A stretch of DNA of 64,000 nt from Candidatus Omnitrophota bacterium (GTDB lineage Bacteria; Omnitrophota; Gorgyraeia; Zapsychrales; Fredricksoniimonadaceae): contig JACQCF010000010.1 in NCBI GenBank assembly GCA_016201795.1, forward strand, positions 79,095 to 143,094, read 5' to 3'. A program made the position numbers and the translations under genes. Shown here one piece after another: positions 8,661-62,800 of this stretch (positions are counted from its first letter, which is position 1; each line of letters begins with the position of its first letter). Under the pieces are notes generated by a model. The model was not told the DNA's origin. It ran no database searches and saw nothing but the letters and a program-made list of their open reading frames with translations.

Positions 8661-8776
8661 AATAGTGTAGAAAAACGCACCTTTAAAAGAATTTCGAAAA
8701 AATATTCCAACAGCGACGTAACTTATTGAAAATAAACAATATAAATATTTAAAAGTATTTGAGAAAATTTGCTAAC

Positions 8777-8786
8777 TGTATATAAT
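8777..8786 (+). promoter_or_regulatory. Candidate extended -10 promoter (TGTATATAAT) for giant gene
   Basis: TGnTATAAT-like sequence 65 nt upstream of ATG 8851. No good -35. Only a weak ribosome-binding site before the ATG. Confidence 0.3.
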
Positions 8787-8850
8787 GTGTTATACTCTTC
8801 TTATACGACGAGAACTCGTTAAAATTAGAGCTTAACCAAGCTAATTCTTA

Positions 8851-29800: not shown

Positions 29801-32800
29801 GGGGACCTAGTACTTCAGGAACTTCTGGACCCCCGACAAAAACATTCGGGGGTGACAAAGTTTTGCCTGTGCAATTCCCTGAGCCAGAGCTTCAACCTGC
29901 GCCTGCTATTCGGCCGGTCCCCCTACCCGTGTCATTGCGAGCGAATGAAATGAGCGAAGCAATCTCTTATCCTAATAAAAAGATTGCTTCAGTCGCTTCG
30001 CTCCTTCGCAATGACACCAATGTGGTGGTTATTAATTTCAATCGCATCATGATGAATCCTCAGGCCACGGCCAGGGGGCCAGTAACGAAAACTACAGATG
30101 CCTATAGCCCTGTCCGAGAAGCCCAGCAGATAGCCGATTCTGCTGACGAGGCCATGACGACCATAACTTTAAACAATGGCGTAACAATAGAAACACCTGT
30201 GAAGGAAGCTTCGGAAATAGAAAACCTCATGGGCACGAAAAGAGACCGTCCCGTTGTTATCATGACCACAGAATCTGCCCAGGGTAGTTACTTATTACAA
30301 AATTTTGGAATTACAAAGGGATGGGAATTCTCGCACACCTCGTTGGCTGACATTGAAGAAATTTTGGGGACGAACAATGTTACTGAAAAGATACGTCAGT
30401 TAGTAGCAGAAGAAAAAGTTCGTCGTCAGCAAGAGGATTATACGCCGCGCCAGATCCGTGTGCTCGACTGGGGGGCTGGTTCAGGCACAGCTCTGGAGGA
30501 TTTAGTTAAAGTGTTGGGCGAAGACAGGGAGTATGTTGAACTGATTGCTTATGGCAACATGGTTTATTCTAATCAATCGAACGCAGCCGATAGAACCATT
30601 TTTGATGTGAAAGAAAATTTGGGGGCTTATATTGAACCAGGCAGTATCGACCTTGTCTTTAGTCATTTAGGGCTTTTCCACGCGGGGATTCGGTACATTA
30701 ATGATGATCTCATGGCGCTGGTCCGCGCGGGAGGAACAGTTGTTTTCAATACTGATTCTCCTCAAGCCGTGAAGACGGTATTCCCTGAATCAATGGATGT
30801 AGCGGGGTTAAAAGTCAATTATGTGATTGCTGCTCTGATAAAGAACTTACGGACAAGTTCTGTGGTGGTGTTAAGGCCAGCCTCAGATGCCAGTCCGGTG
30901 ATGACGATGGAGAATGGACAGCCATTGCCGCTGGTCCAGGCACGGGAATTATTAGAACACATGAACAAATGGTTTAAACGTACACCTGTGATGGATGGTG
31001 AACGTGACCGTACCATTAGAACACGGCTTGAAGAAGCCGTCCAATCGAGCCAGCTTAATACAGCCTCTCCTGTTGCCGCATCGTATCGTCGGCTTAAGGA
31101 AGGAGAAATAGCTCAATCCATTGCCCAGTTCTTCAGTGATAAGAACATAAGCGATAAAGCTGATCAGATGAGTCTCGTTAATACTGCTATTGCTTATTTG
31201 CATGCTGGGCAGTGGCAGCCGCATGACGCGGCCATGACGGCAGCGGCGGGAGCAGGACAAGCGGCGGCAGCATCGACCGCGGATATTCTGCAACAGCGTT
31301 TGGGCATTCTCAAGCAGGTCGCCTCTTATGTACAAAAGCATTTTGCCAAACGCCAGGGCAACCCCACGGATGTTCTTTTCAATGATGTGATGTTTGTTGA
31401 TCAGCTTAAGATCGCCGAGAGGATTATCAAAGAACGAATAGCGGTGGCTCCCAATGCTGCAGGTAAATCTCTGGCTGAATTTTTGGCTGCCTTGTCTGTG
31501 GCCCTGGCTGGCCAGCACGCTACATTATTGGGCCGTAACGAAGGTGACATCAGCAAATTCTTTGACGATGTAGACCTGCCGCCTGGCTTTATCGCCACCT
31601 ACCAGCAAATGGCCCAAGAAATCAGTAGCGCCTTTGGCCAAAACATCCGCCTGGTTAACATGGATGAATTAATTGAAGAATATCAGATGGCTCTTGCCAA
31701 AGGAGATGTCCAACAGGCCAAATTACTAGAAGAACAGATTAAGCAAGCTCTTGACGATACCAGCGCCATCAAATTCTTCTCATTGACCAGCCGCGGCCAT
31801 CTGCCGCAGCGTATCAAACACGATCCTAAACTCCTGGCTGCCCTGCAGTCTTCCAAATTAAACGGCATAACGATCCTGGATGAGGCCGATGACCTCTTGT
31901 TGCTTGAGGTAACCTATATCGCTTCTGAGCCGGTGAACGTGGCCAAGAGCGACATAGCCAAAAACATGGTCAAGAAGATCAAGGAACTCTCCAAGCTTAT
32001 TAATATTGAAGGTATCAAGCCAGGCAAAGGCAAGGCTATCAAGAGAGTTGCCACCATTAAAGAATTTGAAGAGGCGCAGCAGAAGAAAGAATTGGCCGTC
32101 TGGTTTAGCGGTCAGATCGGCGTCAATGGTTTGGCCGGTACGCCGGATATGCTGGTGACCAAGGCGGTGTTTGAGCATTTGCACGATTATCCGGCTTATT
32201 TTGTGGAAAGCGTCATTCGCGGCATCATGGAACCGATCAATACAAGACTGGTCCCTGCAGAAAAAGACGGTAAACTCCAGCTGGTGTCCCGCAGCCGCAT
32301 CGGTGAACCTCAGAAGGATTTGATTTTCAGCGAATTCCCTTATCTGATCGTCCAGACCTTGAAATATAACCAGCAGAACTCCGGCCGTAAGATTGTCATT
32401 GATGATTTGCAAGTGACCAGCGCCAGCGTTTACGAAAATCCGATCCAAGAAATCCTTCAAGGCCCCATCGGCGGCGCGACCGCTACCAAGAGCACAGCCC
32501 AGCAAATCATTGAGGCCAAGACAGGTTTGCGCATTGAGCCCGACGATATTATCGGTGGCGAAAGCAATTTGATTGAACAAATGACCTGGTCTGGCCAGCG
32601 TCAAGTGGTGGTTGAACCTGTCGATTCCGTACTCAAACGCGCTTTAGAGCTAGTGCGACAAGCCAAGAGCAATCATCACGGCTCCTTGGTGTTTGCTGAT
32701 AACTATGAAACTCTTCAAGCTACGGCCAAGCTGTTGCGCCAGGAATTCGGCAACGACCAGGTGGATGTTATTGATGGAAGCGAGTCCGATATAAGCAAAT

Positions 32801-35800
32801 ATGAGAATGAGATAGGCAGCAAGCAGCGCATTGTGGTGGCCTTGCCTATCGCCGCCAAACAGCACGACTTTAAAGGCAATATTGATTTGATTATTCTTTA
32901 CGGCGAGCGCTGGACGTTGACCGATGGCACCCACGCAGTCAACCGTATCCTACGCCACGCAGGGGAAACCGGCAGTATTACTGTGTTGACTCAGAAGGAT
33001 GAGCTTAATCAACTCATCGATCAGATTAAGGAACTGACGCCAGATATTGAACGTTTATTACCGCAGAACTCCTCTTATAATGACCTTAAGCAATGGGTGA
33101 ATGATTTTAATAACAGGACCAGTGATCCGGTTGAGTTATTCAAACTGGCCATACGTTTCCATGAATTGCGGCAGCGTTCGCACGCGCATGAGCATGCGGT
33201 GGATACCGTCTTGCGTAACAGCCGTCAGACCTGGCTCTTGAATAAATTAAGGGAAATGGTTCAGTTGCCATCAGCGACGGAGGCTGACAAGCAGGCTTTG
33301 GATTATCTGCAGCAGCGCGAAGCCGTAGGGCATTACGGTTCCACCATGCAGGAGCTTAATACCACTGCCTTGACCGGACGCGATTTGGTCAAGCGCATTT
33401 CCACCATGCGCTGGGATGCGTTAGAATCCATGGCCAATGATCTTTTAGCTTACAGCGAGCCTTCCAGCGGGGCACCTGTCAGCGACGGTATTCGTCGATT
33501 AGCGCAAGAAACGCTGGATTCGATCCAACAGCGCCGTCTGAAGGAAGCCGCCGAATTTATGGTGTATCAGCCAAGCCAGGGCGACTCGGTCAAGGAATCA
33601 GGTGCTTATGAGAATCCTGATCATGAAGCGATCTTGCGCGGGGCGTTGTTCTTAGGTGATGGAATTTTGCCAAGCCGTATCAGCCGTGCCTTTAATGAAC
33701 CACAACAAAGCATAGCTTCGGCCCTTGCCAAGGGTGTCAGCCAGCAGCGTGTTTCTGAATTTAGTGAGCAGGAGATTTCCCCTGAAATGGCCGTCAAAAT
33801 GCTTCATAGCGGTCGTGGCCTGACGGTTTCGCCTACCAACGATGCTTTAACTCAAAATGGCTACTTGTTCTTAGGGATGTGGAAACATCTACAGCTCATT
33901 CAAGGACTGCATGGTCAGCAATTCCGCCGCCTGGCGGATAGGCTGGGAACGGCTTTAATTGGTACCAAAGAAGATGCGTTTAATATAGCACTGGCTTTGT
34001 GGGATTTGAATCTTAAGGATGTAGAAGAAGTCTTGCAATTGGTCAGCGTGGTCGACGGTATTAATACCATTACAGGCGCCAACATAGCGTTGTCTGATGT
34101 GGTGATTGCGCTTGGTTTAAGCCGCGGTAGTTCACAGCAGCTTATCAAGGAAGTTGCCCGCCTGGCAGGCGTGGCGCTGCCAGCTGCCCTTAACGAATAT
34201 TTAGATGCAGTGGTTGGAAAGATTCAAGAAGCCCAACGGCTCCAGAGCCGCATACAGCAACTGCAACTTTTGATGAGTAAGGGAGGATCGTTACCACAAC
34301 GGTGGAGCCTGTGGCGGCAGTTACAGGAAGTTCAAGCGCTGTTGCAGAAGAATCATGCTGAGCGCAGGGGGGCTTTGGAGAAAATTACTTACGCAAATCT
34401 GGAAGCCATGAGAGGTCAGGGTCGCGTGGTGGATGCGCTGCGCCTGTTGGGTGTTAATATTCCTGAGAATCAGGTCAATGAAGAGCAGATTAACCGCACC
34501 TTGAATTTCCTAAGAACTAAGTTGGGCGATGATATCAATAAGATGAATATCACAGATATCGTGGCCGTTATCGGGCAGCCATTAGGCGCCTTATTGTTGC
34601 TTGAGAATCCAGACAGGTCCAATCCGTTGGTCACCGCTATTATAGAGAAGGCGGAAGTCTCTGCCGAATCCATTGACGCCTATATTAAGCGTCATGAGGG
34701 GCAAGCTGATTTCAAATCCAAAGCCAGGAAATTGCAGGCATTGGTCGCTAATAACAGTAGCGTACCGTTAGCCCGCGTGGTGGAAATAATCGGTCTTAAA
34801 CAGGCAGCAGGGTTAATTCAACAAACAGATGAGGATACGCTGAAGTTAGTGCGTGAGGTTGCGGCAGCCGCTGGGGCCAGTGAAGAACAGAAGATGGAAT
34901 TCTGGACAAATCTGTTAGCCCGCCAAGATGCCCAGCCTCAGCAACTGGAAGATGCCGAATTTTGGTTGAAATATGGGTTGTCGTTAAGGAGTATTTACGA
35001 TAACCACGACCGCCTGGTGCCGTTAAAAGCTGTTTTCGTCGGCCAGCCGGTGCTTGATTCGCAAAATAAGGAAGCCTCTATTGATTCTTATTACCGTTAT
35101 TTGGCCCAGCAGGCATTTTTGAATGAGAGATTGGACGAGTTATTGGCCGCTGGCGGTTTAGATCGTATCAACCCTCAGGACATCGAAGCCTACATTAAAA
35201 CTCAAGCCTTGCAGTTGCGTCAACAGGCCAATGAAACCAACACCATACCGGCTGATGGCCGCAGTGTCAGGATTGCCGGGATTAACCAATTAGCCCTGTC
35301 GGGTACAGATACTGAGTTTATAAAGACTGTTTTACGCGTTTTCCTTAAGGCAGACAAGAATGTTAAGGCAGTGGCTTTCGTAGCCAATGATAGGCTGATT
35401 CAGGGCAAAATCTCCGGCAAACTTCAGCCTTATGGAGCACTGCCAGTTCAGTTCAGCCAGGGTTCTGGACTTTTAATCATGCGTCCGGCCGATTTCAATA
35501 ACCCTCAACTGATCACCCAATTAACCCAGCTTGCGTTTTTGGTTGAGCCTGAAAAGCCAGCTTCTACACAACTTGATGAACCTACTGTGCCGATAGCGCC
35601 CCAATCTCAAAATAATTTGTTTACTAACTTATCTACCCGAATGTTCAGCTTGGGCGCTGCCATCGGACTGTTCTTTGCCGCGGAGAGTTTAAAAGCGCAG
35701 GATAATAGCTTCCCTGAGGGCAAGAAAGCCATTGCCCAGTCTACCTCTAATAATAGGCCCAGACAGTGGCCCACAGATGAAGGCGGTCAGACTAGCCGTA

Positions 35801-44800: not shown

Positions 44801-47800
44801 AGAATATCTCCAAAGTGTTGCCTGGCGTGACCAGCAAGTTACCGGCGGTGCTTAATCCAAATGTACAGATGATTCAGGAAAGTCTTGGGGTAGGCCGCAT
44901 CCAGATAGATTCATTGACCAATGTGCCGGCAGCTCTTAAAGACACTGTAGATATCAGCCGTGGTGTTGCAATGTTAACCCAAGAACAGCTCAACAGCATT
45001 GCGCATGATGCCGATGGGGTATATAGCCTTCAGGACATCCTTTCTGATAAGCTCAAACGCGACGTGGTTTATGACAAAAACCATCATGAAATCGGCACGA
45101 TGATTTTAGGTATTGAGGGCAAGATTCTATTGGATCGTTTGATGAAAACAGAATGGCAGGTCCTTGAAGAAAATGATGAAGGCAAGGTCACGAAAGCTTA
45201 TTTGCGTACGTTTGAGCAAATTCTCGCCTTACGCGATGATCTTTTAAATAATAAGCATATCAAGAGCGTCAGCCGTTTGATGAGACCAGGCAAGCATGAA
45301 CTCAAACAAGTCATTTGGCTGGTGCCGATGACTATTGATATCCCTCGATTAGACGACAGTGGTGTCAGCGAGGAATATGAGATCATGCCGCAGGCCGACA
45401 TTTTTGCGAATCTCTTTAGACGTATTTTTGAACCCATTGAAAAATTCGCTATGCTACGAGGCTATGTACCTACAGCCCGGGATTTGGGCGTTAAGCTTGG
45501 TGATTATCCGATAGCCAGATTGTATGAGACCAAAGCGCTCGTCAACGGCCAAAAACAAAGCTTGGTGCGGAAGGATGACTTAAGACCTGATGGCACGGTG
45601 TACCGTAGCGGCAAGTTTACCTACGTCGAGGATAACAAGGTTAAAGATGAAAGAACTCATGCTAAAACAATTAAGCTTATCAGTAGCACGATTATGTTTG
45701 AAAACGGCATCAAGGCCATCAATAGTTATAGTGATGATACATTAACCATTGTTGACAAGAAATTCCTTTCAGGCGTACCTGACATGCCATCTCAGAGCCG
45801 TTGGGTTACTGCGCGTGATGAACGTATTCTGGAGAAAAAGCTGGATGAGAAAGAAACGCGTACGCAAAAAGGCTTAAGGGAACATATATGCAACCTTATT
45901 CAACCGGTACAGCTGGCAGACACTAATATAGTAAATCAGGTTAATGACGCCATCCGTGATGCCCAATCTGATGCGTTTTTATTTAACATAGCGACGGCAT
46001 ACCAGACACAAGTATTTGACCACCGTAATCAACAGTCATTGTCTCAAAGGGTGGAGTACTATGATGCCATGGGCCATCTGGTTGTCCAAACAGAGGGTGA
46101 CTGGACGGTTATTAACAGTTACCAAAAAGATCAGATCAAGTCCACGTACGAGTTCTTTAAAAATGAATTTGTTTGGGAGAAGAAATTAAACACATCCGGC
46201 AATAAAAGTTTTTCCAGTGTCGTTGATGCATTATTGAGCAAGGCAAACGATGAAGCGATTAAAGAGTTTAACGAAAAATCAGGATACGTCTACAATAAAA
46301 AATCCGGTGTTGTCGCTCAAGAAGACACGAGCGGCGCACGGGTCAAGGATACGACTCAACTGAGATTATATGATGTTACTAATGCACTGGGTGGCCAGTA
46401 TAGAGAATATCAAAGAATAGGCGATACCTTAGGAAGGGCCTTTGTCAGAGAAGTTGATATGCTTAAACCAGGTACGAATGCTGCAGAGGGTACTCATACA
46501 ACATTCTTTAGTTTCAATAATAATGTTGTCACACGTTCCTACACAGTGAATAAGGCTGGTGAACGATTGGAAAATGAAGCCCTTCGCACCACAAAAGAGG
46601 GTAGCGCGGAAAATGATGCCAAGAACTATCTATATAACTATACAAACTTCAGAGGTGTTGAAGGCATCAGAGCTAAATTTTTATCTGACCCGACAGGCGT
46701 GCCGGTCTGGGATCAAATAGCTAACAAGAGAACATACAATAAATTTGGGAAGAGTATTTATAGATTGAGAAACGAACGCATTGAATATGACATTATGCCG
46801 GATGGTTCAAGAAAAGCAGAATTCCTTCCGATATTCGCCCACACAGATTATGCCTTCTTTAAGATTAACTTAGGTCAATACTTTGGGGAGTTTGCTTCTA
46901 AACGTCAGCCAATGAGTGTCAAGACCTTTGATGCCGCGGCTAATCATGTTGACAGGATAGAGTTCCTTGTCAAAGGACGGGACGGTGGGGAGAAATTCAG
47001 AGTATTCTTGAATGATCATTTAGGTGTCATTAATGAAAAAGAAATACAGGCGATTTACAATAAAGACACAACAGGCCCGACTGTATTAACGGCCGCTAAG
47101 AATTGGCAACCCGTTATCCTTAACCTTTCTAACTTTAAAAATAATCTGTTGAATGCCAATAGAGAACTTGACCTGAAACAACTGGCTCAAATTGGCGTAT
47201 CTTATGGTAACGACGAAGGCAATAAAGAAGGCGCTGAAATCTATATAACAGAATTGCAGTTTGTTAAGAAAGATGGTTCTAAGATCCCGGTCGGTTTAAT
47301 TGCCGGTGTCATTAACGCGACAGGCAATGTCCCAACCTTTAAGTTTAGAAAGCCGATGGGAGCCAATCCAAATTCTGATACCGACTTCTTTACCAATGAA
47401 GTTTACTTCACCGAATCAATGCCTTGGTATATCCGCTCAGGGATAACAGTTACGGTTAATAAGAAGGATCCATTAGATGACCGAGAAATTGGTACGCCTC
47501 AACCTGGCAATGTCGTTGGCATCAGCGATACCGAATTATCACCGGATAACCTGTTGGTTTCCCGCGACTTCTCCATCTTACCCGGTTCAACGGGATTCAA
47601 GGTCGTAAGGCCGCAAGGACAGGTTTATTTCAATGGATACTTTGAATCACAAGACAAATATAACGGCGGCGAACGTTTCAATGACTTAAACGTCTGGCTC
47701 GATTTCGTTATCGCTGATGATAAGGGCATGCCGCGATTCTCGATCAATAGCAAAACAGACGAGCTGCAATCTGTTTATCGTTATAAGGTCACGACCGATC

Positions 47801-50800
47801 ACGATCTTCTGATCGCCAAATATGACATTAAGCAACAGGCCATGGTTGTCAAGAAATACGGCAAGAGCCAAGATGGTATCGTCCGCTGGGAAATGAAAGG
47901 ATTCTTTGACCATACTCTTCCGATGAGCAGTCGCAAGCTTGTGGACAGTTTTGGTACCTATGTCTACGACGCAGTGGGTAAGAATTATGATGATGATCAC
48001 ATCCTCTTCCCATGGACTTGGGAACGGTCCAATGAAAGGCACGGCCGATTCTACAGAATGTTATTCGGGTCAGCCGATGCGCCAAAGGAAGATGTTCAAA
48101 AAATGATCACGGATGATGATCCAGATTTCGTTAAATGGGCTGCGGCTATCGAGCAAGCCAAAACGCAAATTGACTCCATGCCAAAATTAAGAATATCATC
48201 GGTTCAGAATGGCTCAGCCCCGGATGAATATACATACGGACCGGACAGGGCTATTTATTCGTATAGTAATACATTTTTCTGGTGGGCATTAGGTGCCTTT
48301 GTAGCATTCCTTATTTCGACATTAGTATTAGTTTATAAACAATTGCGTCTTCGTAGAAACAAGATACAAGGATTAAATGCTGAAAGTAAAAATCCAGCTC
48401 TTCCAGCAGTGCGCTATACAGAAGCTCAAGTGAAGGCAGCGGTCCGCAGTATATACGAAGATGTTCAGGCGCTTGATTTAGGGCACCTTACTGATCCTGA
48501 CTTTGTCGATACAATTGTTAATCAAATGAAAGCCCACAAGCAGATCAAGACACCGGCCGGTTCTCCTGATGAGTTGGAAGCTATTGATGTTGATAAAGCG
48601 GTAATTTTGGTCAAAGATCCCAAGGCAGCATCAGGCGTCCGTGAAGTTAAATTTAAGCTCTTTGTCTGGCAAGTCATATTTGGGAAAAATCAGCTTAAGG
48701 AACTTGCTTCCAATTCAGCCTTTATGGCTCGATTGGTGAAAGACGCGGAAGATATCTTTGAAAATCGGGTGGATGTGGTCAAATCGAATGATGAGGAACC
48801 GCAAAAGGTGAAACGCAACAAAGAAGTTATGCTGGTGGTCAAGGCCTATAATTCTCTTTGGAGATTAGTCCTCGGTCACCAATTCTCATTAATCCACATG
48901 AACTTATTAAAACGACGGTTTTCCATCAAGGTCGAAGACGTCAACTTCTTATATGAACACTTTGATGAGCTTGTTCTCGGTAAAGATCCACAAAACGAGT
49001 ATATGGATCCTGAAGAAGCCAAGCGCCTTAATCCAAACAGAATTCTTGAAACGGTTGATTATCTTAAATCCAACCAACAAGCATTAGAGCGGTTTACTCA
49101 CAATATTTTAAAAGCTATTCAGAAAAAGAGAAATCAACTGTACCCCGGGCCTGTCAAGAAGACGATTTTAATGGCTCTTATTCCTCTTAAGTTAATTTGG
49201 GATTTAGGGAAAGGCATTTGGAATAAAAATTACAAAAACGCCACCGGCGCATCATTCTGGCTGACGATCATCAGCGGATTAGGCGTTTATGCCGCTCTGA
49301 CAGCCAAGATTTGGATTGCCGAAGTATTACCGCATTTTGTCTATATTGCGCGCGTTTTAGCTTCCGGCGCCGGATTCGACGCTACCTTCGCCTTTTCACC
49401 ATTGGTCGTTGGACTAAAAATACTTATCTTGCTGTCGGCCGGATTGGTGATCATGTGGGTTGTCGGTTCGTTCGTTGCCTGGGTGTCAGGCCGTATCGAT
49501 AGGGCCTTCCCGATCAAAACAATGAACGACATCGTGACGGAAATGCCCGGCGCATTAGATAAGCTGTTAAAAGATAATCTAGAACGACAAAAAGATGTTA
49601 TTGACGATTGGAACGCGATGATTGAAGATGCCCGGCGCGAGTATAGAATTTCTTCAGAGTTAGCTGTAGGATTAAGCTTCCCAGGTAAAGATAGTAGAGT
49701 AACATTTGAACATATCTTTGGAAACATTACGGTTAAAGATTTACAAGCAATCGAAAAGGCCCTCAGGCGCGAAATCAAGAGCTTTGCCAATAATCTCTTG
49801 CGTAAAACCAAAATGCCTGAAATCGCACCAATCTATGAACATTTAAAGAGCTTGTGGGTACGCTTGGTCTGGAGAGGCGACTCATTCTTCACCTCTTGGT
49901 CAGAATTAATTACGAAGAAAAATTGGAACGGATTATCGCTTATCGGGCAGGTCAGAAAAGGGTATAACATCGCATGGCAAATTTTTGTCAACGAGATGGC
50001 AATAAATCCAAAGTTCAATGCTTTAGTTAAAAAAGAGGTGAAGTGCTTAGCCAATGAAGACATTGAAGATGTTATGGAAAGAATCAAAAAGATCTCGTAT
50101 GACGATTATCAATATATCGTCTCAGAAATTGAACTATTCGCTAATGAAAGATTGCAAACTGTTTGGAAGACCATGCGCAATACTCTTCGTATCCGACGGG
50201 CTTATCGCAGACAGTTAGTCAAAGCCATCCAAGAAAAGCAAGAGTATGTTGAACATAAATTAGGAAAGATGTTTGCTCGCATGACACCTGATGTATTAGG
50301 GGCTTATGTTCAATATAAGGATGCGCTAGAGACCGAGTTAAAGCCGACCGCCCAATCAGCTGAGCAGTTCCGGTCAGGCTTGACAGCGGAGCAATTGGCC
50401 TTTGAGCGAGAAAACGCGGATATCATTAAGGCCTTGGATAGCTTAGTGAATGAGAAGTTCCAGCCGATCCTAGCCGTTGCCGCGAGCAAGAGCAAGGTGC
50501 AAGGCTCTGAAGATAGTCAAAATGCTCTGGAATATGCCAAACGCTTAAAGTGGGATGCAGTATTTGTTCAAGAGAATTCCTTGGCCGAAGAAGGCGTGGG
50601 AAGCTATAAAGGGTTCTTCTTGGGGCAATTGCTTTATCATGCCAAGGGAGAAGTGGTCCTCTTTATAGACGCTGATACGGAAATCACTTACTCCAATGCC
50701 AGGAAGATGCTTAATGCTCTCACAGAGTTTAATGATGAGAAGCTGGGTATCTTAAACTTCAAACAATATATTTACAACAGAGATTATAACTTGGCCACCT

Positions 50801-53800
50801 GGCTGGGTGGTACGGCTATGCGTGCCCTTTGGAGCCCGACCTTTAGAACACGTAATTTGGTTGGTAATCCGACGTTCCTCGGGCACGGTGCTATGATCCG
50901 AACTGATTATCTCAGAGAATTCTTCGGGGCCCAGCCGGATTATGTTGCTGAGGATATCATGATCGCTTTACTCTTTAGAAAATATGGAGTTGATGTCCGT
51001 TATGCGGATTACCTGGAAATGGGTGAAGGTATTGAGCAGTCTCTCGCGGACTATATGTCCCCAACCACCAAGAAATGGGCGCAGGGTACAAAAGAAGTTA
51101 CCAAAGGGCAAGGATTCAAACAATTAATATGGACCAAAGAAGTTCCGTTGAACGAACGAATCGACATTTGGTTACATGGTGTCGGGTTCTACACGATCCT
51201 CCACATGTTAGTTCCTGTAACTATTGTCCTCTATTTTGTTAATAATATGATTGGAATTAATCCATTTGCAATTATGGCGTATTTCATCGCTTTTGTCGGT
51301 ATGGCGGCCTCCATGGGGATCAATGCATATCTTTTGGTCGATAGGCTGGAAGGCGGCGAAGACGACGGCGGCATTAAAAACGCGTTCAAGAGTTTCGGCC
51401 TGTTCTTAGCTAAGGGCGCCCTCTTCTTCTGGACGCTTTTGATCGGAAACCAGATCATGGGCGTCATCATCGGTTGGATGGAGAGAGCCGAGTATATCAC
51501 CAGTAAGAAAGGCCCTGGTTTAACCCAAGAGAACCCGCGCCAGATGTACAACAGAACAAGGGGCGCAACGATTATGGCAGTTGGATTAGGATTGTTCATC
51601 GCCTTGTATACGTTAGCGGCAAACTTCATTATATCGCTTCCGATAGTTGCTTATGACCAGGAGTTCCCGTATCAGGTTATTGCTTCCATTCTCTATATTA
51701 TCGTTCAGATCAGCTGGGTCGCTTCGATCTCCTTATTTAATCCGGGACGAACGTTGCTTGGAAAAGCCAAAGATATCCTCTATCATATCGGGTATGCCTT
51801 AGAAGATATTGTCAACTTCTTGATTCGTGATCCGTTTATGAGACGTGTAGTGTACAGATATGTTTATCCGCTTTATCGGCTTATCGCAAATGGCTTTGAC
51901 AGCGACAGAACGGTTGTTGATATAGCCAACCGTCTATTAGGTCAAAAGAATGTTGAGTTGGATGAAGCAAATCTGAAGGCAATCTTCGGAGAAGATAAGG
52001 TCAATAGAGTCGCCGGTGTGTTTAAAGCAGGTCAGTTTGGCCAACAAGGAAGCCGTGCCATGACACGCAGCGGCAGGGAGAGGGAAAGAGAATTGGTATC
52101 TAAGATTATCTATGAAGATATGATGCGCATGGGACGGGATTTAGTTAAGGTCTTCTACGAAAAGAATAAAGTTGCACCAAATGACGATGAAATTGAAGAA
52201 TTTGCACAACGCTGGATTTATGAAGGCGGTAAATTTAACAGGGCGGTACGTAAACTCAATGATTATTTATCTATCCGGGTACCGAAACGGGAATTCTCTA
52301 CAACATTCGACCGTTTAGTTGATCACTTGTCATCAACGCAATCATTCTTGTTGGCTATGCAGGCCTACCGCCGCGTTATCGGCAGCGAAGAGAAGTTTAA
52401 GGACGATTACACCAAATTTTTATCTAACGGAAATAAAGCCTATGATCGGACACAAATTTCACAGAACAGCACAACAAAGCTGAGGGTATTAGCCGGTACC
52501 CTGGGTGTTGGGTTTGCAGTTATAGGCTTTGCGGTCGGATTAACGGTTATCGCTTATGCCCTCTTAGGCGTGTCTTTAGTTATACTCATCGGCAGTGCGT
52601 ATCTTCATATCATGGGCATCAGCACGATGGGTGAATTTATGCAAATGGTTAAAGGTCAAGCTGTACTCCACGGCTCCATTACAATAGACGCTGATGTTGA
52701 AAAAACTTTAGAGAATATCTGGGCTGATCCTTTCAAATCACTCAACCAGTTGGCTAATGAATTAACCATTGAATACCTAATGAATGAAGAACCGCGCGAT
52801 GCGGGTGAGTTAAGTTATGACCAATTCAAGCGACGTATCATTCAGGTTGTTACCGGGAACGAGTTAGACTTTGGCAACCCTGAAATCGCCAAGGCGGCAA
52901 AGACGGAAGCCAAAGAATTTATCATCCGCGTTTTAAGAGAATCGGATCAGGTCAAGCTTCCGGATGATGTCGGCGCCGAGGTCTTTATTAAGGAATTTTA
53001 TAATCGATACATTTTATCCCAAGCCGAAGTCAGCCTTGTTTATTCAACAGATAACAACGGTGAAGGCGTTCTGGATATGAAACTCATTGAAGAGATGCTG
53101 GTGATCAATCCTAACTTAAAAGTTTACCTTGTACCTAAAAGCCGGCCGGTCAGAAATGACTTTTCTTATATGGACGCCAATCGGGTTATGGCTATGACGT
53201 TAGAATTGGCCCGAAGACGAGGCGATGTTAATAAATATGACATCTTCAAGAAATTAAGAAGATTTAAAGGAAATTCAGAAGAAGGACGATTCCATATCTT
53301 TGAGCATGGCCCGATGGTTCAAGGTCTTGATCCGACCGGCATCAGTAAAGAGTTCTCATTCTTATTAAGAGAAGGACGAACGATTGAAGAAAGTCAACGT
53401 CGTGGTAATAAACTTGTCGATAAACGAGAAGTGGTTATGTTCAACAAAGGTCAGGCCAATGCCGAAATTAAGGGATGGCAGGCACCAGCCTATCTCGGGT
53501 TCATGGTCAAGGGCCGTGTTGCCGAAAAAGCTCACGGTGTCAGTAGGGACCGTCAACCGCAGGCTTCGATATTTGTCGGATTACGAGCCGGTATTCCGCA
53601 TTATATAGATTGGGCGATAGCGCACCGGGCGGATTTTGATCCTTATGCAGAGAAGTTCTTAAGCTCAGCCAGGCAGACAACCAAAGATTACATCAATGCG
53701 ATTATGGGTGCGAAGTTCAGAAAGATGTTGGGAGATAAGTTTGGTTGGGATGTTGACTTTGGTAAAAATAAATATAAACCATTAACAAATGAAATATTGT

Positions 53801-56800
53801 TTGCCCATCTTTTTAAAGGACGCTGGACAGATTTGCAGAAAAGAAAAGGCGATAATGAGTTTGTCGATTTCTTTATTAGCAAAATAGAAGAGATTTATTC
53901 CGATACGACGCTTGATGATGCGCAAAGAAGAGCCGCGGTAGAAAAGTTATTTAAAGAGTTAAAAGCTGAAGTGAAAAAGGCTCTCGAGGGTATGAAAAAA
54001 GGTATTGAAGAGAAAGCTCCCGGCATCGTTGCGAAGGCCTTTGATGAAATTTTAGCGGGTATCGATGCCGAATTTAATGAAGCTATAGAGGAGGCTAAAA
54101 AAGCCCACATGTTTGAGGTGGCACGTAGAGATGATGCTATTAAGCAGGCCATTTTGGCTGCCAGAGCAGAGCTTGAGAAAGAGGTGGAGCAGTTGGTTGC
54201 AGGGGTTAATGCGAAGCAGAACAAAATCGATGCAGTCATTGGAGATTTCTCTACTGTCAGTAGCCGCCTTGGCGCTGTCCAGCAACGGGTTAAGCTGGTG
54301 ATCGATGATATACAAAAACGGATTCAACAATATTATCGTCAAGGGGCTGAGATGCAAGGCGACAATTATAAAGGTTTTGGCAATTATGTTCCGCCGACGG
54401 AGGAACACCATAAGCGCGACTTATATGCCACTTATGAACAGTTACGCGAGGACAGCGAAGCCATTGTCGCTCAATTGAGACAGCTGAGAGAATTTTATGA
54501 GTCCAGAGGATACCAAGGGGATGAATCGGTAAAGTTCCTGGATAAAACGATTACCGCGATATTGAAGTTATTCTATAACTCAAGAAACGCCCTTAAAGAC
54601 TTAGCCGATGACAAAGCGTTACTGGCCGGATCAAGCGGCAGCGCCAGGCGCGATGCCATGGAGATGGAAGACAAGTTAAAAGTCCTTATGCATGCCTTAG
54701 TGGATAATGCCTTTAAACAAGTTCTCGAACACAAAGATGACAATATCTTCGGCGCCTTTAGATACCGGGCTGGTCAAATCTTGGCAGCAATTTATGAACA
54801 AGAACCGGGCGTTAATCAAAGCAGTGCCTTAAAGAGACGATACCAAAATATCCTCAATCAATTAACCTTCTGGTTTAGAAATATTGAACAAAGATATATC
54901 CACAATCACGCTCTTGGACTTATCAGCGCTGCTGATCAGACAGAACTTAAAGCTGCGCTCAATGAAGAAATAACAGCGCTCGAAGAATTATTGCTCGGTG
55001 TCAGGTCTGCCAAACATCAGGAAGTCAGCAGTCCTACTGCCGATGCCGGAGAAAACAAAGCGGTCATGCTGGCCAGTCGAATTGGAGCCATCAGAAGCAA
55101 GTTGCGTGATGCTCTGTGGGCCACGCTTACGGTCAAGGTTGAGCAACCGTTGGAAAAAGCCCTTATTGACGGGGAGATGACGATGGCTCAAAAGAAAAAA
55201 GTTTCCTTTGTTGAGCATATTGTTCCGCCGGTTACACCGATTCCGCAGGTCGACAGAGAGGACAAGACAGCAACAATCTTTAGTGAAAAACGAAATGAGC
55301 GATTTGTTGTTAGCTGGGGCTGGGCCAAACTGACAGGAGTCATCCTGTTTATCAGCGGCTTTATTATGGCATTTAATTCAGTGATCATTCGCGTGGTTGT
55401 CGGTGGTATAGGGCAGTTTGTCTTAAGAGAAAAAGGCATTGCCAACGACATTCTTGGGCAGATCACGCTGCCGGGTATCCGAGAATCAGCAGTCATGGGA
55501 ATGATCGCTATGGTTGCCGGTATTATGCTGATGGTTGTGGCCGGACGATTACGGTTCTATGCGGAGTTGGCGGTGCATGCTCCGGAGCACACCAATGACG
55601 ACAATCGTAAATTGCTGTTTAAGGGATCTATTGATACCAGCCGTGATCCGTCGGATAAAGTTTTGGTCAGAAGTAGCCGGGGCATTGTCCATCAAAGGGG
55701 TGGACGTATTTATGTCAATAAAACCGTATTATTAAAGAATTTCGGATTGCCGGCCCGTGTTTGGATGTTGGTATCAGCGATGACACAAACAATACATTAT
55801 AGAATTCCGCTATTAGTTTATATTCCGATTTTTGGTTCAATTCTAAGAGACACGGTTACAGCCCTGGTCGGAATTGCGCCGGTGGTCCTTGCCGCGATTG
55901 CCGCCTATGTGTTGGGCATGAATTGGTTAGAGATCCTTGGAGTAGCAGGTATAGGGGCTGTCGGCATGGCTTCCGTTGCAGGTATCTATTCTGCTTATGT
56001 TGGGATGACACATAAAGAAATAAATCTCCGTGAGTTTGACTTAGCATTTAAGAAGGCCTCCGGAGCAGACCAAGGTGCAGAGTGGAAGCTCACATCGAAA
56101 GAAACGGAAGAAGAGAAGATAAAGAGGATTAAGAGAAAAGAAGACAAGATTAATGATTTTGTTCAAGAATTCGTTGAAAATTATCTTAAGACCGAACGAG
56201 AGATTAAGATACTGCTGCTTGGCCTCAACGAAGATAGTGTTAAGCCGTTAAGAGAGTTTATTAATAATTACATGAAGAAAATTGGTAAAAATAATATTCA
56301 AATTGAGGTTTTAATAGACGCTGATGCGGAAAACTTAAAGGCATCCGCAAACGGATATAAGGCGGATGTTATTCTCGCCGTGGGTAACAAATTTGCCGAG
56401 AAAACTGGTTGGACAAAACCGACGTATGTCGCCTTTAACATTAACAAGGAAAATGCCGTTAAGCACGGGGTCGGCCTTAAGAAAGATAAGACCACCGGCG
56501 CAATCACCAGCTCAATTAACGGAAATGAAATATATCCGGCCTTTATCGCCCTGAAGCCGGGCGTAGAGCATATTGCCTATAATAATGAAACTGGCGAAAA
56601 TATACAAATTCAGTATACCTCCGAATATATAGAAGCGTTACTCAGCACGCAATATTATGCCTTAAGAAAATATGTTTATAAGGGTGAAGAAGAGAGATTG
56701 CTGAAAGATATCAAGAAAGATATGGATACGAGTACGAAAGGCTTAGGGTTACCTTTTGCTTATATTGTCCTGGGTGCGGTTCCGATTTTTGAAAAAGAAT

Positions 56801-59800
56801 CAGTCATCGGTGAATATCTGCCCAACTTCCAGCTGCAGAGTGTTGCCGGAAATCAGGAATTAGAAGAGTATATTAGTAAGATTGACGGCGCCGGTGCCGG
56901 CGGCGGCGGCGGGTTCACCTTTGTCACCTTAGTGGGACATAAGGAAGCGGCCAAAGGCAAGGGTATTGTTGCCGCCTATTCACCGACTTCCGATAACGGC
57001 GGGTCTACCGGGGAATTACGTATCGTGTTTATGCCGTTTAGAGGAACGACCGTGGCTATGGGTGATGGTATTCAAGTTACGCAGATGAACTTAGACATGA
57101 CGAAACATAAAATTTTGGAGATGCGTGTCGCTTCGGTAGGAACCAATGTTTTTGACGAAAAGTTCGGCGGAAGAGAAACAATGACCGCCACTGTGTTAAC
57201 CAAGATTATTGAGGAGATTAACAACCCGACAACGGATGACGGTACCAATCTTCTGGATACCCCGCTGCCGGTATACTTCTTGGCTAATCAATTAGCGCTC
57301 TCTAAGGTCTTTGATAAAAAGTTTCTTTTGGCCAAGACAGAAGAAGGCCGCCGCAGATATCCCAACCTTAATTTAAGAGGCGCGTCCATCCGAAACCTCG
57401 TTTGGATGGCCATGGCTGAACGGTACAATATCTATCCTGATGTTAGAGACCCTGTTGAAGCCGGGAAGAAAAAGGTCGAAAAGATGGAAGATCCGGAATA
57501 TGAGCAGTATAAGAAAGATTTGGCAGAGCGATTTAAGGCCTTCCAATGGATGCTTGAGAAGGCGACCACCACTCAATTTAAGGATCATGAAGGAAAGTAT
57601 ACCGGACAGGTTCACCAGGCCAATCCAACGATCAGCGGTTCCGAGATTGCCGTAACCTTTAAAGCACCGGTGACCGAAGATGAGATCAAGGTCATCGAAG
57701 CAAAGCTGCATGACTTCCGTAAATTCCTTTCAGAGGATCGACGTACGATTTATGGGCAGAGATTTATTGATAAACTTGAGCCGCCATATACAGCTTATCA
57801 AAGAGAACGTGATGTCGAAACAAATAATAGAGTTGTTGATTTTGAGGCTATGGGATCCTTCGTTCCTATTCATGAATCAGAGAGGGCCGCTGATGAAACC
57901 GAACGAACTATGAATCCTAAGAAATACAGAGGCCAAGAGATAGAATACAGACCGATGGCTCAACCAGGATGGTATCTGAAGATCAACACCGAGATCTTTG
58001 TCAATCAGGAATATATCGATACGCTTAAGGGAGCTAAGGTTAATACATTCGGTGCCGGTAGTTTGTTCAGCAGTCAGCTGCCTCAGTTAATTACCCGAGG
58101 AGCCGTTGATGCCTTGCTTCTGACAAAAGCGATCAATATCTTTGTCTTTAACAACGTTGCCATCGAAGAAACAATGAACATGAAGGCCATTGATATCATT
58201 AAATTTGTCGAAAAGCTGGCCTCACGGCATGTCTCTGATGACGTAGCCAAGATCATCGCCCAAAGACGCGGCTTGCAGGAGGGTGAATATTCCAGAGGAC
58301 AAGACGGCGAAAATAAAGGCGTATATTTCACGAAAGACAGCGATTACCTCATCCGCTTCGGCGATCTCTTTGACGGATATATTATTAACAAAGATGAGAC
58401 GCTGAAGAAAATTGAAGCGGAAATGAACAAGTTTAAAGATGAGAAAGTTGATGTGGCTCTGACAGTTTCAGAAGCGAAAAGAGCAGAGCTAATCGCTCAA
58501 ATACAACGGTATATTGTGATACAGCGAACTAAACTCGGTGAAGTTAATGCAAAGCTTGCGGCTTTACCAACCACAGATTTGACAGAGGAGCAACAGCAGC
58601 AAAAATCGCTGCTTACAGGGTATAAGGAATTCTATGAAGCTGACTTAAAGAAGGCTGAAAAATACATTGGGCAAATTACAGCGGAAGTTGTCAATGAAAG
58701 TCAATATAAACATGGGATATTAACGGTGTATGACGGCAGTGATGTTTCCTATGACGCCGAATTCAATAAGCTTGATATTGGTAAACGATATTTTGATGAA
58801 CAGGGCAATGACATTACCTGGATGTACAACTATGACAATCCGACCTATGGTTTCTACGGCGGTGGCCCCATGTGGATTGACGAAGAAGGAAACCGCTATA
58901 TAGAAAAAGGTTCGGATAACTTCTTCCGTATCATCGCTGACGCAGAACATTTTGAATACGTTGTCCCGAGCGAGAAGATCAGAAAAGAGTTGATCCATTA
59001 CAATAAGTATGTCCACTTCCTGTATACTCATCCGCTATTTGCTCGAAAAATCGGCGTTGATTTGACTGACCTTAAAGGCGACCTCGGACGGTTATCCTGG
59101 TATATCCATGACGGCCGTCTGGTGGGTGCACGGACCGAGGCCGGGCGATTTAGAGATGCCTTTGTCTTGAGTGATAAGGATAGGGAATATTTGGCCAAAC
59201 GTAATATCAAACATCCATATGAAGAAAATGTCCTCTCCTGGGTGCAAAAGCCTCTCAAAGCCGCCGGCCCGATTGTGGAGTTTGAAGATTTTGTGGCTTT
59301 GGATTCAGGACGCGTTAGCGCAATTATGACTGAGATCAAAAAATTACATGAAAGCATAAGAAAGCAATTCATCTTGTATTCCGGTCCGTCAGCGGTTGGA
59401 AAGAGCCCGCTTTGGAGACAGATGCAAAGGATGTATCCAGACACCTTCAGCCGAATCATCCTGTACCATTCAAGAGCTATGCGGCCGGGAGAAGGTGAAG
59501 GGGTTGATTATTACTTCCGGACAACTGAAGAGATTGAGCGTCTCGCTAAAGAGCAAGAAGATTTTGTGACCATGGATGTTTATGGGCAGATTCAGGGCAT
59601 TAACTTAAAAGACGTGAATGCGGCAGTTCAAAGCGGAAAGATAGCGATCGCTGAAGTCTCGGTTGATTGGGCGGATCATTTAAGAAAACTTTATCCGGAA
59701 ATCATCTATAGCATATTTGTTGCGCCGCTTAGCGATGTAGAAATAAAAGCCCGTGCCCAAGCCAGCGGAAAATCAGCGGATGAAGTTATCTACGAAGAGA

Positions 59801-62800
59801 TGCTTAATCGGCAGAATGAACGACACGCCGAGATGCCGACGGCAGAGGCCAAAAGAAAAGATCGGGCAAGAGCAGCGGTTGAAGAGATGGCCCGCAGAGG
59901 GGAATATGATGCCGTGGTTGTTAACGCTGACCTCAGAGATTTAAGCAGCTATGCTTCCCGCTGGGAAGGCTTGGAAGGACAGGCCTTGGTTGCAGAATTT
60001 ATGGCCTTGGTGAAGAAAGCCACCGCCTCCTTCCGTACCCGTCCCGGCAAAGAAGAACCGACCGATGAAGCCGTTCGTGAAACGATCGCCCAAATCGGTG
60101 GATTAGAACAAATGGCGGTTGTTGAGGATAAAGCCATTGAAAATGCGGTGAAAACATTAGAAAGACTTGGGCAACATGATGCGGCAAGATTATTAGAAAG
60201 AGCAGCCGAAATCGAAGAAGCCCATCAGGAAGCGCTCAGGTTTGAACATTTGGCCGTGGCTAACAGAGCCTTGAGGAACGCGGAACGTTTGGCCTTACAG
60301 GCTCGGGATGAAGCAGGGGCTCAACAGGCCTTAAAAGAATACGCAACGGCAATCACATTTTATCAGAAAGTCGATTCCGATGAGGCCAGGCAGAACCTGA
60401 AAGTCGCTCAAGCCAAAGAAAAGAGATTACGTAAGTCTCTCAAAGACTTCAAAGAATATTTTGATGTTATATCGGAGTCTGGTGAAAAGACGACAGAGAC
60501 TGTTTCCCGTTTTGAGGCGCATCAAAGAGGGATACGGCACGGCGGCATCAGTTTGATGGTTTTTGACCATGCTGGCCGTTTCCTGGGACAAATAAGGGCA
60601 GCGGACAAAGATGTCTTCCCATCGAAGCTTTCCAATGCCGCTGCCGGACACATCAAGGCCGGGCATGGACCCTATGAAACTTTATTGGCCGAAGGTCCGG
60701 AGGAAATCAGCATCGGCAGTAAGTCATTGGCATTGAATGAATCAAACGTCCACCAAATCGGCAAAGACTATGCCTATGATGGTTATCTGGAAATGTTTGA
60801 GTTTACTTATTTAAATGCCGCAGAAAAACAGGCGCTGGTTCAAGTGATGCAGGCGCGTTTGGGCAATCAGCAAGGCACAAAGACCCAACACATTCTGTAT
60901 GACATTAATGATGAATTATCGGTGATTTACCTGTTCACCTTCAATGCCACCCAACACCAGGCCTTAAATGAATTGGCGCAGGCCATCAGCCAGCAGACCG
61001 GGACTGGCCACGGCAATTATACCTATAATCGGGAGAAGAAATCTTTGTATGTTTACGCGCTCAACAGTCAGGAAGAAGATTTAGTGAATGAGATTATGTC
61101 GCAGATGAGAGGTGGTACACAGTTGCAGGAAACGGGTGAGGGCAAGGGCGAGGTGGCGGGATTGCGGTGGGTGGACTTTGATCATTTGGTTGAAGAATTC
61201 CATGCCCGTCCGCAGCAGTACACCGACGTGTTTGTTCCGTTGTTGACGGATGCACAAATCGTTGCACAGATCAAACAGGCGCAGCAAGCCGGAAACCGCA
61301 GGGTTTATGTGTTGGCCGATGTGGATAAAACATTATTACCTAAAGGTCAAACCTTACATGAACCTCAACAGGCCGCCATGCGTGATACGTTGGTGGGTGT
61401 TGTGGACGTGGTCACAAAAGCAGGTATCATTTCCGGAAATTCCCGTGCCGCTCAAAACAAACGCATCGTTGCTGGCATTACCGCAAAGGCCCGTCCCGAT
61501 ATTGACATGTATGTTAACGGTGGTGGCACATTGATGCAGTTGGCCGGCAACGACCAGTGGCAGAGCCGCAATATAGGCGGTGATTTGAAACAAGAACATT
61601 TGAATGCCGTGGTTGAAATTTTAACGGATCTGGCGGTGAATAAGAAGTTCCTGATGGATGAAGAAGAATTGGCAGCTTGGCGAGCGTATTTCAGTACCCG
61701 TCCGTCCGAGGGACCATTTAGCAACTCATTACCGGAAGGCTTCGGCCGTCGCCGCAATAAGGACTTTCATTTCGCGTTTGATTTCAGCTGGATCAACGGG
61801 AACAGCAATTTCAAGGTAGGTATTTTTGATGCCGAAGTTCTCGAAAACTCTCCGACGGACAGGAATTTACCGGTCACGGCTCCGTATGTCGAGACCCGTG
61901 ATGGAGTTTCATTCACAATTAAACCGTTATTAGGCTGGCAGGAATTGTTGCCTGACCGGGGCGAAGCGGCAGATATCCGTATTCGCTTGATTGAACATAT
62001 TGAACGCGAACTTGGCCGCCGTGGATTGGCCGGCGTTTATGAATTACGTCCGGGTGGCTCTTTGAGTATTGACGTGGTGCAGAAGGGCATTGATAAAGGT
62101 GTTGCGCTGTTGGATTTTGTCCGCCGTCATAACGTACGCCGGGTGAAAGTGTTCTCCGTCAGCGCCAATCCCCAGCGGCATGCTGCTTCCGTGCAGGGGA
62201 AGGTCACCTGGATTGGAGTTGGAGAACAAGCCACGCAGGCATTTTTACGCAAAGCCCTGGATGAAGGGACCCTGGCCAAGGAAGAGGAAGGGACATTGTG
62301 GTATATCGCCGACGAATTGAGCGAAAACGGTAATGACGTCCCGGCCGTGCTCGCCGCCGAAGCAGCCGGTCTGCTGGTTGTTCCGCAACCGGCGATTACC
62401 TCTAATCGCACGGCGGCCGAACGCAGAATCGCAGAGGGTGGGGTCAAGATTCGTCATTATGCTCCGCATACTTTGGAAAATTACGCGCAGCAACTGCAAT
62501 CAGGGTTCGAGGCCATTGGCGTGAATGCCCGGTTTGAAGTGGCGCAAAAAGGTGAAACGGCTCAAGCCTTCGCGGCACGGATCCAAGGACAAGTCGCGGA
62601 TGTGTCGATTGTGCAATTCCATGGCGCGGAAAAAGAAAAGCCGGTTGTTGCTCTGGATTATCCCGGCGAAGTTGTTGTGTTGATCCACCGTCCGGAAGAA
62701 GTTCTTTTAAGATACGGCTCGGCCAAGGTCCAGGAAATGTTAGCCAAGGCTAAGGCCATCATTCTCTTAGGCCGGGCGATGCGCAAAGAATATCAGCAAT

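Follow-up and report, generated by a model that had tools for sequence, protein, structure and literature searches.

Membrane-integrated processive synthases of the cellulose-synthase/FKS fold are already known, and their mechanism is not new. In BcsA, a cellulose synthase of glycosyltransferase (GT) family GT2, transmembrane (TM) helices are followed by the GT domain, an interface helix, two TM helices, a further interface helix, the gating loop and two last TM helices, and the canonical gating-loop motif of processive synthases is FxVTxK. FKS1, an FKS-type synthase of family GT48, has 17 TM helices and an N-terminal accessory domain, and its DAN motif denotes metal-independent catalysis (PMC12715860). 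GT48 is treated as eukaryotic, and bacterial members are not discussed, in PMC12715860 and PMC7965971. GT domains and many TM helices are also already known from the giant proteins of Omnitrophota, for which GT5 (glycogen/starch synthase), GT1, hydrolases, methyltransferases and the like are named (10.1101/2023.11.21.568195; 10.64898/2026.06.07.730766). Here we describe a synthase module inside a giant open reading frame (ORF) of a Candidatus Omnitrophota bacterium, found on a 64,000-nucleotide (nt) stretch of contig JACQCF010000010.1 (hereafter, the window), and compare it with these systems.

Frame 0 of the + strand is free of stop codons from 8845 to 63999 (18,385 codons; first ATG at 8851), and an open frame of such length cannot have arisen by chance. 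A membrane-embedded, GT2-type processive synthase deep inside the encoded protein had been proposed in the original prediction, and profile matches, the character of the TM segments and fold matches all bear this out. The best explanation of the data, to which we give a probability of roughly 80%, is that residues ~13466–14306 form a complete membrane-integrated processive polysaccharide synthase of the cellulose-synthase/FKS fold. The conserved unit spans amino acids (aa) 13466 to ~14306 (nt 49240–51762), where homology to two relatives, P0001 and P0003, ends at aa 14300–14306. It comprises two TM helices, a cytoplasmic part of ~570 aa, two TM helices, an interface helix, a gating loop and two final TM helices. 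The module, the conserved parts ahead of it and the hydrophobic clusters around it are laid out as follows (KD, mean Kyte-Doolittle hydropathy; muH, hydrophobic moment):

8851–63999, + strand: giant ORF hosting the synthase module, at least 18,385 aa, running past the window end.
46729–47988, + strand: conserved ectodomain block (aa 12629–13048), with a CBM30-like beta-sandwich at about nt 46834–47139.
48274–48330; 49249–49305 and 49420–49476; 51187–51720; ~52477–52590; 55330–55542; 55789–55989, + strand: six clusters of hydrophobic segments.
48274–48330, + strand: single TM anchor (aa 13144–13162), uncharged, KD 2.2, muH 0.07.
48331–49248, + strand: cytoplasmic linker (aa 13163–13468), within a continuous blastp alignment of giant-protein residues 13156–14300 to P0001 residues 349–1466.
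49249–49476, + strand: N-terminal TM hairpin of the synthase (aa 13469–13487 and 13526–13544), kept in relatives.
49477–50595, + strand: FKS-like N-terminal half of the cytoplasmic domain, then a long, partly low-confidence helical insert.
49774, + strand: IKSFANNLL motif in the N-terminal half of the cytoplasmic domain.
49852–49869, + strand: first GT-A strand LWVRLV (aa 13670–13675), at module residues 211–216 of the model.
50149–50229, + strand: RLQTVWKT..RRAY motif in the N-terminal half of the cytoplasmic domain.
50596–51144, + strand: GT-A catalytic core (PF13632).
50608, 50668–50676, 50950–50955 and 51073–51078, + strand: core residues K13922, D13942-A-D13944, E14036-D14037 and K14077-W14078, respectively.
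51187–51306, + strand: TM5-like and TM6-like helices (aa 14115–14133 and 14136–14154), uncharged, KD 1.7–1.8, muH 0.10–0.13.
From 51373, + strand: long, hydrophobic interface helix (aa 14177–14211), model helix 718–752.
To 51558, + strand: gating-loop-like segment (aa 14212–14238) with EYITSKKG at nt 51490, rich in lysine and arginine (K/R), model coil 753–771.
51592–51720, + strand: TM7-like and TM8-like helices (aa 14250–14268 and 14274–14292).
52477–52590, + strand: separate hydrophobic stretch of ~40–45 aa (aa 14545–14582), one TM helix or a two-TM hairpin.
55330–55989, + strand: separate cluster of 4–5 TM helices (aa 15496–15715), outside the synthase unit.

The catalytic core is recognized by the Pfam family Glyco_trans_2_3 (PF13632) at 51.8–58 bits against a gathering score of 27 (E 1e-13 to 1e-15), which settles in favor of the original prediction the GT2 hidden Markov model check that it had proposed; the match of the module to Glycos_transf_2 (PF00535) is below that family's own threshold. 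The three motifs singled out beforehand are all in place: VLFIDADT at aa 13938 (nt 50656), AEDIMIAL at aa 14035 (nt 50947) and KKWAQG at aa 14076 (nt 51070). The assignment of the first two to the DxD and ED motifs of GT2 enzymes stands, and that of the third to QxxRW holds in part, with the tryptophan and a basic residue kept and the glutamine missing from the clade. K463, D483, E577 and D578, in module numbering, are the same in all 18 sequences of a divergent set with 16–29% identity to the window. In the larger alignment of 28 sequences (A1), the aspartate of ED is invariant and the glutamate is kept in at least 90%, and neither varies in alignment A3 or in A2, which contains the window and its six closest relatives. 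The close clade additionally keeps GSxK, D(A/G)D(T/S)E, (S/A)ED, GEG.E and T..KW. Because the catalytic lysine, aspartate and ED pair are invariant across divergent homologs and these further motifs persist in the close clade, the pattern indicates that catalysis is under selection in the module. It could instead be argued that the domain has lost its catalytic activity and remains as a membrane anchor or scaffold only: giant proteins carry many divergent domains, a single-sequence search of the PDB gave no match, and identity to the relatives is low (16–38%). With the catalytic residues invariant across 18–28 highly divergent homologs, and further motifs kept by the close clade, we find this hardly credible.

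All six hydrophobic clusters expected between 48 and 56 kb were found at their predicted places, above what shuffling would produce. They consist of uncharged 19-residue segments with mean Kyte-Doolittle values of 1.3–2.6, hydrophobic moments of 0.07–0.32 and favorable Wimley-White octanol energies; cluster 51187–51720 comprises four TM helices and one interface helix. Since the segments are uncharged and their helical hydrophobic moment is low, they are membrane-spanning and not amphipathic, as had been anticipated. Residues 13100–15750 contain 13 uncharged 19-residue segments with KD ≥ 1.6, compared to a mean of 0.77 and a maximum of 4 in 500 shuffles of the same residues, and the giant protein has 26 strongly hydrophobic 19-residue segments in total. 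Thus, it is almost certain that the module contains a GT-A domain of the GT2 clan flanked by true TM helices.

The view that all clusters flank one synthase has to be narrowed: it applies to those at 49.24–49.5 and 51.17–51.8 kb, whereas the segment at 48.27 kb anchors the ectodomain and the others are separate anchors. A single machine made of all six clusters was rejected, as homology to the relatives covers only aa 12629–13048 and 13156–14306; the clusters at 52.5 kb and 55.3–56.0 kb have no counterpart in the relatives by blastp. Around the anchor at aa 13144–13162, five K/R residues occur in the 15 residues after the segment and one before it, from which an N-out, C-in orientation is predicted. 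Within the synthase unit, three K/R residues follow the TM helix ending at 13544 and three follow the last TM helix, the gating loop is rich in them, and the predicted outside loops have none. The sidedness of everything downstream of the separate stretch at ~52.48–52.59 kb, including an ARMT1-like domain, depends on whether that stretch forms one TM helix or two. The loop between the TM pairs of the 55.3–56.0 kb cluster carries an HxxEH motif (HAPEH, aa 15578–15582, nt 55576–55590), which could be an inverted zinc-binding motif or a chance occurrence; an HELGH motif occurs downstream of the synthase modules in relatives P0004 and P0005.

The region upstream of the synthase is conserved with it. 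By blastp, the ectodomain block is collinear with P0001, P0003, P0005 and P0006, where it likewise stands upstream of the synthase module, and all four keep the order ectodomain, TM helix, linker, TM hairpin, GT domain and four TM helices. The linker (aa 13163–13468) matches no family. A five-sequence profile of the ectodomain matches the carbohydrate-binding module CBM30 structures of Clostridium thermocellum (1wmx and 2c24) at E 3e-7. CBM30 modules are described as binding beta-1,4-glucans. The ectodomain is predicted to face outward, anchored beside the channel, and like the BcsA/BcsB pair, the arrangement places a carbohydrate-binding domain, held by one TM helix, outside the cytoplasm beside a synthase, a likeness from which we infer a functional parallel to BcsB beside BcsA. 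The carbohydrate-binding part differs from BcsB in that it belongs to the polypeptide of the synthase, upstream of it, and resembles CBM30 instead; a BcsB-like gene is lacking. That the ectodomain handles the product of the synthase is a tentative suggestion, which we would sooner doubt than adopt.

The AlphaFold2 model of the full unit built from the 18-sequence alignment has a mean confidence (pLDDT) of 74.5 and a pTM of 0.78, compared with a pLDDT of 40.6 for a single-sequence model. In the model, the TM hairpin forms two long helices (module residues 2–46 and 52–92), the helices at residues 643–709 match the TM5-like/TM6-like pair, and the TM7-like and TM8-like segments are helices at residues 780–804 and 815–838. 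In a Foldseek comparison with the PDB, all 48 matches at E ≤ 1e-3 are glycosyltransferases of the same fold, nearly all of them membrane-integrated processive synthases. The first five ranks are held by Fks1 and Fks2 (E 1e-11 to 9e-10, TMq 0.50–0.58). Fks2 (9wzs) aligns over ~1,000 columns with E 1e-11 and TMq 0.58, and Fks1 (9wzu and 9wzv) gives TMq 0.57–0.58. BcsA forms the second-best group (9b8v, E 4e-9, TMq 0.33, ~400 columns), followed by CesA, hyaluronan synthase, chitin synthase Chs1 and the cyclic glucan synthase Cgs. Structural modeling against BcsA, which had been put forward as a check, thus finds BcsA among the matches, and the nearest solved relatives are the GT48 enzymes FKS1/FKS2. 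Only PcManGT (6yv7), at ranks 40–42, departs from this pattern: it is a membrane mannosyltransferase from archaea, a GT2 enzyme that transfers a single sugar. From this architecture, we infer that the module is probably a processive, channel-forming synthase that exports its product.

These matches also bear on a simpler possibility, that a non-processive GT2 enzyme, for which the TM helices would be an anchor only, adds one sugar to an acceptor, be it a lipid carrier, a lipid or the giant protein that hosts it. It would be in line with the match to Glyco_transf_21 (PF13506), the ceramide glucosyltransferase family, which at 23–24 bits is just over the gathering score of 21.7, and with the absence of Q from QxxRW. 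The match to ceramide glucosyltransferase in the PDB is insignificant (E 0.3), PcManGT is the one exception among otherwise processive significant fold matches with a TM channel, and the module has an interface helix, a gating-loop motif shared with FKS1 and six TM helices that are conserved together with the GT domain, so that we regard a non-processive enzyme as very unlikely. Membership of the ceramide glucosyltransferase-like enzymes was rejected on the basis of that E value and the architecture of a channel-forming synthase.

The resemblance to FKS extends beyond the overall fold. As in the GT48 FKS and callose synthases of eukaryotes, the cytoplasmic GT-A domain is split, with a long helical insert parting its first strand from the core; and as in FKS, the domain lies between TM helices, with TM helices placed right below the active site. 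In the model, this strand precedes the rest of the core, which starts at module residue 478, by ~250 residues. In FKS1, the UDP-binding residues Y849 and E851 lie inside the GT domain, residues 713–1281 (PMC12715860), ~250 residues before DAN, whose position was read from the GSC2/FKS1 alignment. A search of the PDB with the A2 profile puts FKS1 first (whole-sequence E ~1e-9) and matches BcsA at E 4e-5 in the GT core only. The best-scoring stretch aligns A2 positions 61–349 to FKS1 residues 564–1006 (32 bits, bias 0.0). It is in this half, upstream of the core, that the motifs (S)EA.RRI.F(F/W)A..L and R.QT..RT..G...Y.RA are shared: the profile segment 'eakerlKfwanayL' aligns to SEAERRISFFAQSL of FKS1, and 'RlQtvwkT..g....rAY' aligns to LRSQTLYRTISGFMNYSRA of FKS1. 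In the core, the shared elements are the lysine of GxGK, the ED pair, Y..(C/M)G.G, TTK and the gating-loop motif (Y)I(S/T)(T/S)x(K/R)G; the profile consensus 'gkaefitskKgaglshvsf', matched by EYITSKKG of the window, aligns to 'GGARYISTGRGFATSRIPF' of GSC2. In the alignment to GSC2/FKS1, K13922, D13942 and E14036-D14037 fall on the lysine of GDGK, the aspartate of DAN and the glutamate-aspartate of NEDI; the FKS1 numbers K1082 and E1221-D1222 were taken from PMC12715860 and mapped onto the alignment by motif. The broader A1 profile matches GSC2/FKS1 at E 1e-46 and BcsA at E 1e-24, a comparison that is biased as A1 includes GT48-like relatives.

The differences from FKS are equally clear. The module has six TM helices, compared with 17 in FKS1, and no match to the accessory domain; it reads DAD, a metal-binding DxD, in place of DAN, and KW in place of KI (RW in GT2 enzymes). 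It is bacterial, is part of a protein of more than 18,000 aa and would not be expected to have Rho1-type regulation. With BcsA, it shares the Glyco_trans_2_3 match, DxD, ED, the tryptophan of QxxRW on an interface helix and the order of elements given above for BcsA. Unlike BcsA, it has no PilZ domain for cyclic di-GMP (no match across aa 12501–17000 at E ≤ 0.1), has two TM helices before the GT domain instead of four, contains a large FKS-type N-terminal half that is absent in BcsA, and has the Q of QxxRW replaced.

Several observations weigh against the assignment or against parts of it. The window sequence has no match to the Glucan_synthase family PF02364 even at E ≤ 1, and when only the GT core is compared, the close clade reaches 25 bits against BcsA and 10.6 bits against FKS1. 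The QxxRW position reads TTKKW, in which W14078 and the basic residue are kept in the close clade and the Q in none of its members. EYITSKKG, in the loop past the interface helix, resembles the FKS form RYISTGRG and in part FxVTxK. Module residues 354–458, the helical insert, are the only long low-confidence part of the model, and the first UDP-binding acidic residue can be assigned only tentatively, to the D in WRGDSF. The orientation is read solely from flanking charges, which fit a cytoplasmic GT domain. For the ectodomain, the Pfam CBM30 score of the window sequence is sub-threshold (21 bits vs 27), with three of the five members matching.

Some of these points favor an ordinary BcsA-type GT2 cellulose (beta-1,4-glucan) synthase with no special relation to GT48. 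The window sequence matches Pfam families of the GT2 clan only, DxD and the W of QxxRW are retained, the core scores higher against BcsA, and the order after the GT domain (TM, TM, interface helix, gating loop, TM, TM) is that of BcsA. A rough tree of the core places the clade beside classic GT2 sequences, and the beta-1,4-glucan binding of CBM30 modules would also suit a cellulose synthase. On the other side stand the whole-module TMq of 0.58 for Fks1/2 against 0.33 for BcsA, the N-terminal half that aligns to FKS1 564–1006 with its signature motifs in a region lacking in BcsA, the first GT-A strand ~250 residues ahead of the core as in FKS1 (PMC12715860), the missing PilZ domain and the PF02364-positive wider relatives. 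Taken together, these make a plain BcsA-type enzyme improbable, and a PilZ/cyclic di-GMP-regulated BcsA was rejected for lack of the domain. Given that the window sequence lacks PF02364 and the core of the close clade favors BcsA, what ties the module to FKS is its N-terminal half, the fold of the whole module and the wider relatives, and on these we consider a specific relationship of the module to FKS/GT48 to be probable. The fairest description of the module is that of a minimal bacterial six-TM intermediate between GT2 and GT48, with a GT2-like core in an FKS-type split cytoplasmic domain.

If the module is a processive synthase, it may work as follows. The cytoplasmic GT-A domain would bind a UDP-sugar, most likely UDP-glucose, through K13922 and the metal-binding D13942-x-D13944, and D14037 of the ED motif would act as the catalytic base. 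The acceptor chain end would be held by W14078 and K14077 on the interface helix, while the gating loop (EYITSKKG) would close over the active site. The growing chain would then be pushed through a six-TM channel made of the two helices before the GT domain and the four after it, and the exported glycan would probably be received by the CBM30-like ectodomain, as by BcsB for BcsA. As to the product, a beta-glucan made from UDP-glucose is a reasonable candidate, at slightly worse than even odds.

The relatives of the module were sought by an exhaustive HMMER search of the window sequence against 1.84 billion protein representatives, which returned 111 proteins at E ≤ 1e-3, 32 of them at E ≤ 1e-10. 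Most of the best matches are pieces of very large proteins (2,240–7,809 aa), with the match deep inside. P0001 is 36% identical over the best-matching stretch, P0003 and P0005 are next closest, and identity of the window to its relatives ranges from 16 to 38% overall. The same search reached a eukaryotic GT48 protein of Cyanophora paradoxa at E 3.5e-6. PF02364 is matched by 17 of the 28 wider relatives (best E 5e-50) and, weakly, by three of the seven members of the close clade (best E 2e-4). PF02364 matches in bacterial contigs are on record as precomputed Pfam labels, so that the wider bacterial family is visible at the database level.

Other searches returned little. A word-indexed homolog search found nothing with the single sequence or the seven-sequence alignment, and two small fragments with a short core alignment (A4). 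A scan of genome contigs with the single protein found nothing related; with A4, species-representative genomes yielded only two related loci, both giant-protein fragments on contigs of Omnitrophota metagenome-assembled genomes, and metagenome contigs yielded nothing by exact DNA or by A4. The window itself was matched in the collections searched by a single 1-kb Logan contig (SRR12113409), on which the upstream T2SSF gene lies. The two Omnitrophota fragments carry the NCBI names 'NUDIX domain-containing protein' and '(d)CMP kinase', and another small related fragment is named 'glycosyltransferase family 2 protein'.

The genomic neighborhoods of two relatives provide circumstantial evidence in favor of a glucan product. 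P0005, a complete protein of 7,809 aa, is flanked by genes for a glucan phosphorylase and a member of the UDP-sugar pyrophosphorylase family (UDPGP) (locus L006, 2802–5897 and 35634–37946), and a GH16/KRE6-like gene (locus L004, 1–590) lies near P0009, a PF02364-positive bacterial relative. The GH16 family is reported to co-occur with GT48 in stramenopile laminarin metabolism (PMC7965971).

In the neighbor-joining tree of the core, a rough distance tree without support values that serves as an illustration only, the clade of the window falls between classic GT2 sequences and three clades named for their motifs, DSDH, DAN and DxNQD, the last of which includes a eukaryotic sequence. DAN or DxN occurs only in sister clades (for example, P0010, P0014, P0015 and P0058), while the clade of the window has DAD. 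A bolder interpretation, speculative and rather unlikely as matters stand, is that the bacterial modules, in DAD/KW, DSDH and PF02364-matching DAN clades that combine the split FKS-type domain with only six TM helices, are a prokaryotic sister or ancestral lineage of the eukaryotic GT48 beta-1,3-glucan and callose synthases, with the DAD/KW clade, carried probably by Omnitrophota, preserving the transition from GT2 to GT48. If it were true, the synthase of that clade would be a built-in part of a giant polypeptide for surface assembly, beside its own carbohydrate-binding ectodomain, and one gene would be a self-contained factory that makes and holds glucan. Literature searches found neither a channel-forming GT2/GT48 synthase in giant proteins nor a bacterial FKS-like synthase with DxD, and the searchable text of 10.1101/2023.11.21.568195, of 10.64898/2026.06.07.730766 and of one supplement makes no mention of a membrane-integrated GT2/GT48, cellulose or glucan synthase.

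The Pfam scan found no second glycosyltransferase domain in all 18,385 residues of the giant protein. Against NCBIfam, the window sequence matches no glycosyltransferase family, and only weak damage-control phosphatase matches were obtained, in the domain neighboring the synthase. The further features of the giant protein are:

9568–9825, + strand: Peptidase_C39 domain in the N-terminal part (aa 242–327), Pfam E 7e-11.
52681–53196, + strand: ARMT1-like damage-control phosphatase domain PF01937 (aa 14613–14784), E 1.8e-12, ~300 aa past the synthase.
58000–58284, + strand: weak CofD-like match, 27 bits and below threshold, upstream of the guanylate-kinase-like domain.
59371–59820, + strand: guanylate-kinase-like domain (aa 16843–16992), E 2.5e-15.

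P0004, one of the relatives, likewise has a guanylate-kinase-like domain downstream of its synthase module. The C39 domain might cut the giant polyprotein into pieces. A weak Helicase_C match (aa 7934–8038, nt 32644–32958, E 0.002) is below threshold and may represent the divergent SecA/DEAD helicase reported for giant Omnitrophota proteins.

Upstream of the giant ORF, the window contains the following genes:

2–2977: ORF without annotation, at least 991 codons open from the window start (first ATG at 263, 904 aa), preceding the secretion genes.
3458–4315 and 4444–5349: two adjacent type II secretion F genes (TadB/TadC-like, T2SSF), E 8e-15 and 9e-17.
5415–6635: AAA_14/DUF4143 ATPase gene, between the secretion genes and the giant gene.
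6710–7681, − strand: gene with a helix-turn-helix and a phosphoribosyltransferase-like domain, between the secretion genes and the giant gene.

The ~1.1 kb ahead of the giant ORF (7682–8850) form an AT-rich gap. The locus resembles the described Omnitrophota giant proteins in having a single ORF far longer than 7,000 aa, C39 near the N-terminus, many TM helices, a weak helicase C-terminal match and type II secretion F-like genes adjoining the giant gene (10.1101/2023.11.21.568195).

A closer resemblance to the beta-1,3-glucan synthases of fungi and plants than to BcsA is unusual for a bacterium, yet the enzyme class is known. As an evolutionary intermediate, a minimal six-TM bacterial relative with the DxD and W of GT2 would also allow the mechanism of FKS-type synthases, against which echinocandin antifungals are directed, to be studied in a far smaller enzyme. 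The module escapes public annotation, in which related fragments take their names from small soluble domains. For Omnitrophota-type giant proteins, whose function is debated and whose discussion has until now centered on degradation and on soluble GT1/GT5 domains, the module adds a concrete, testable activity: an inner-membrane exopolysaccharide synthase with a carbohydrate-binding ectodomain points beyond the digestion of prey walls to the building of a surface glycan, which could serve in attachment or form a sheath or matrix.

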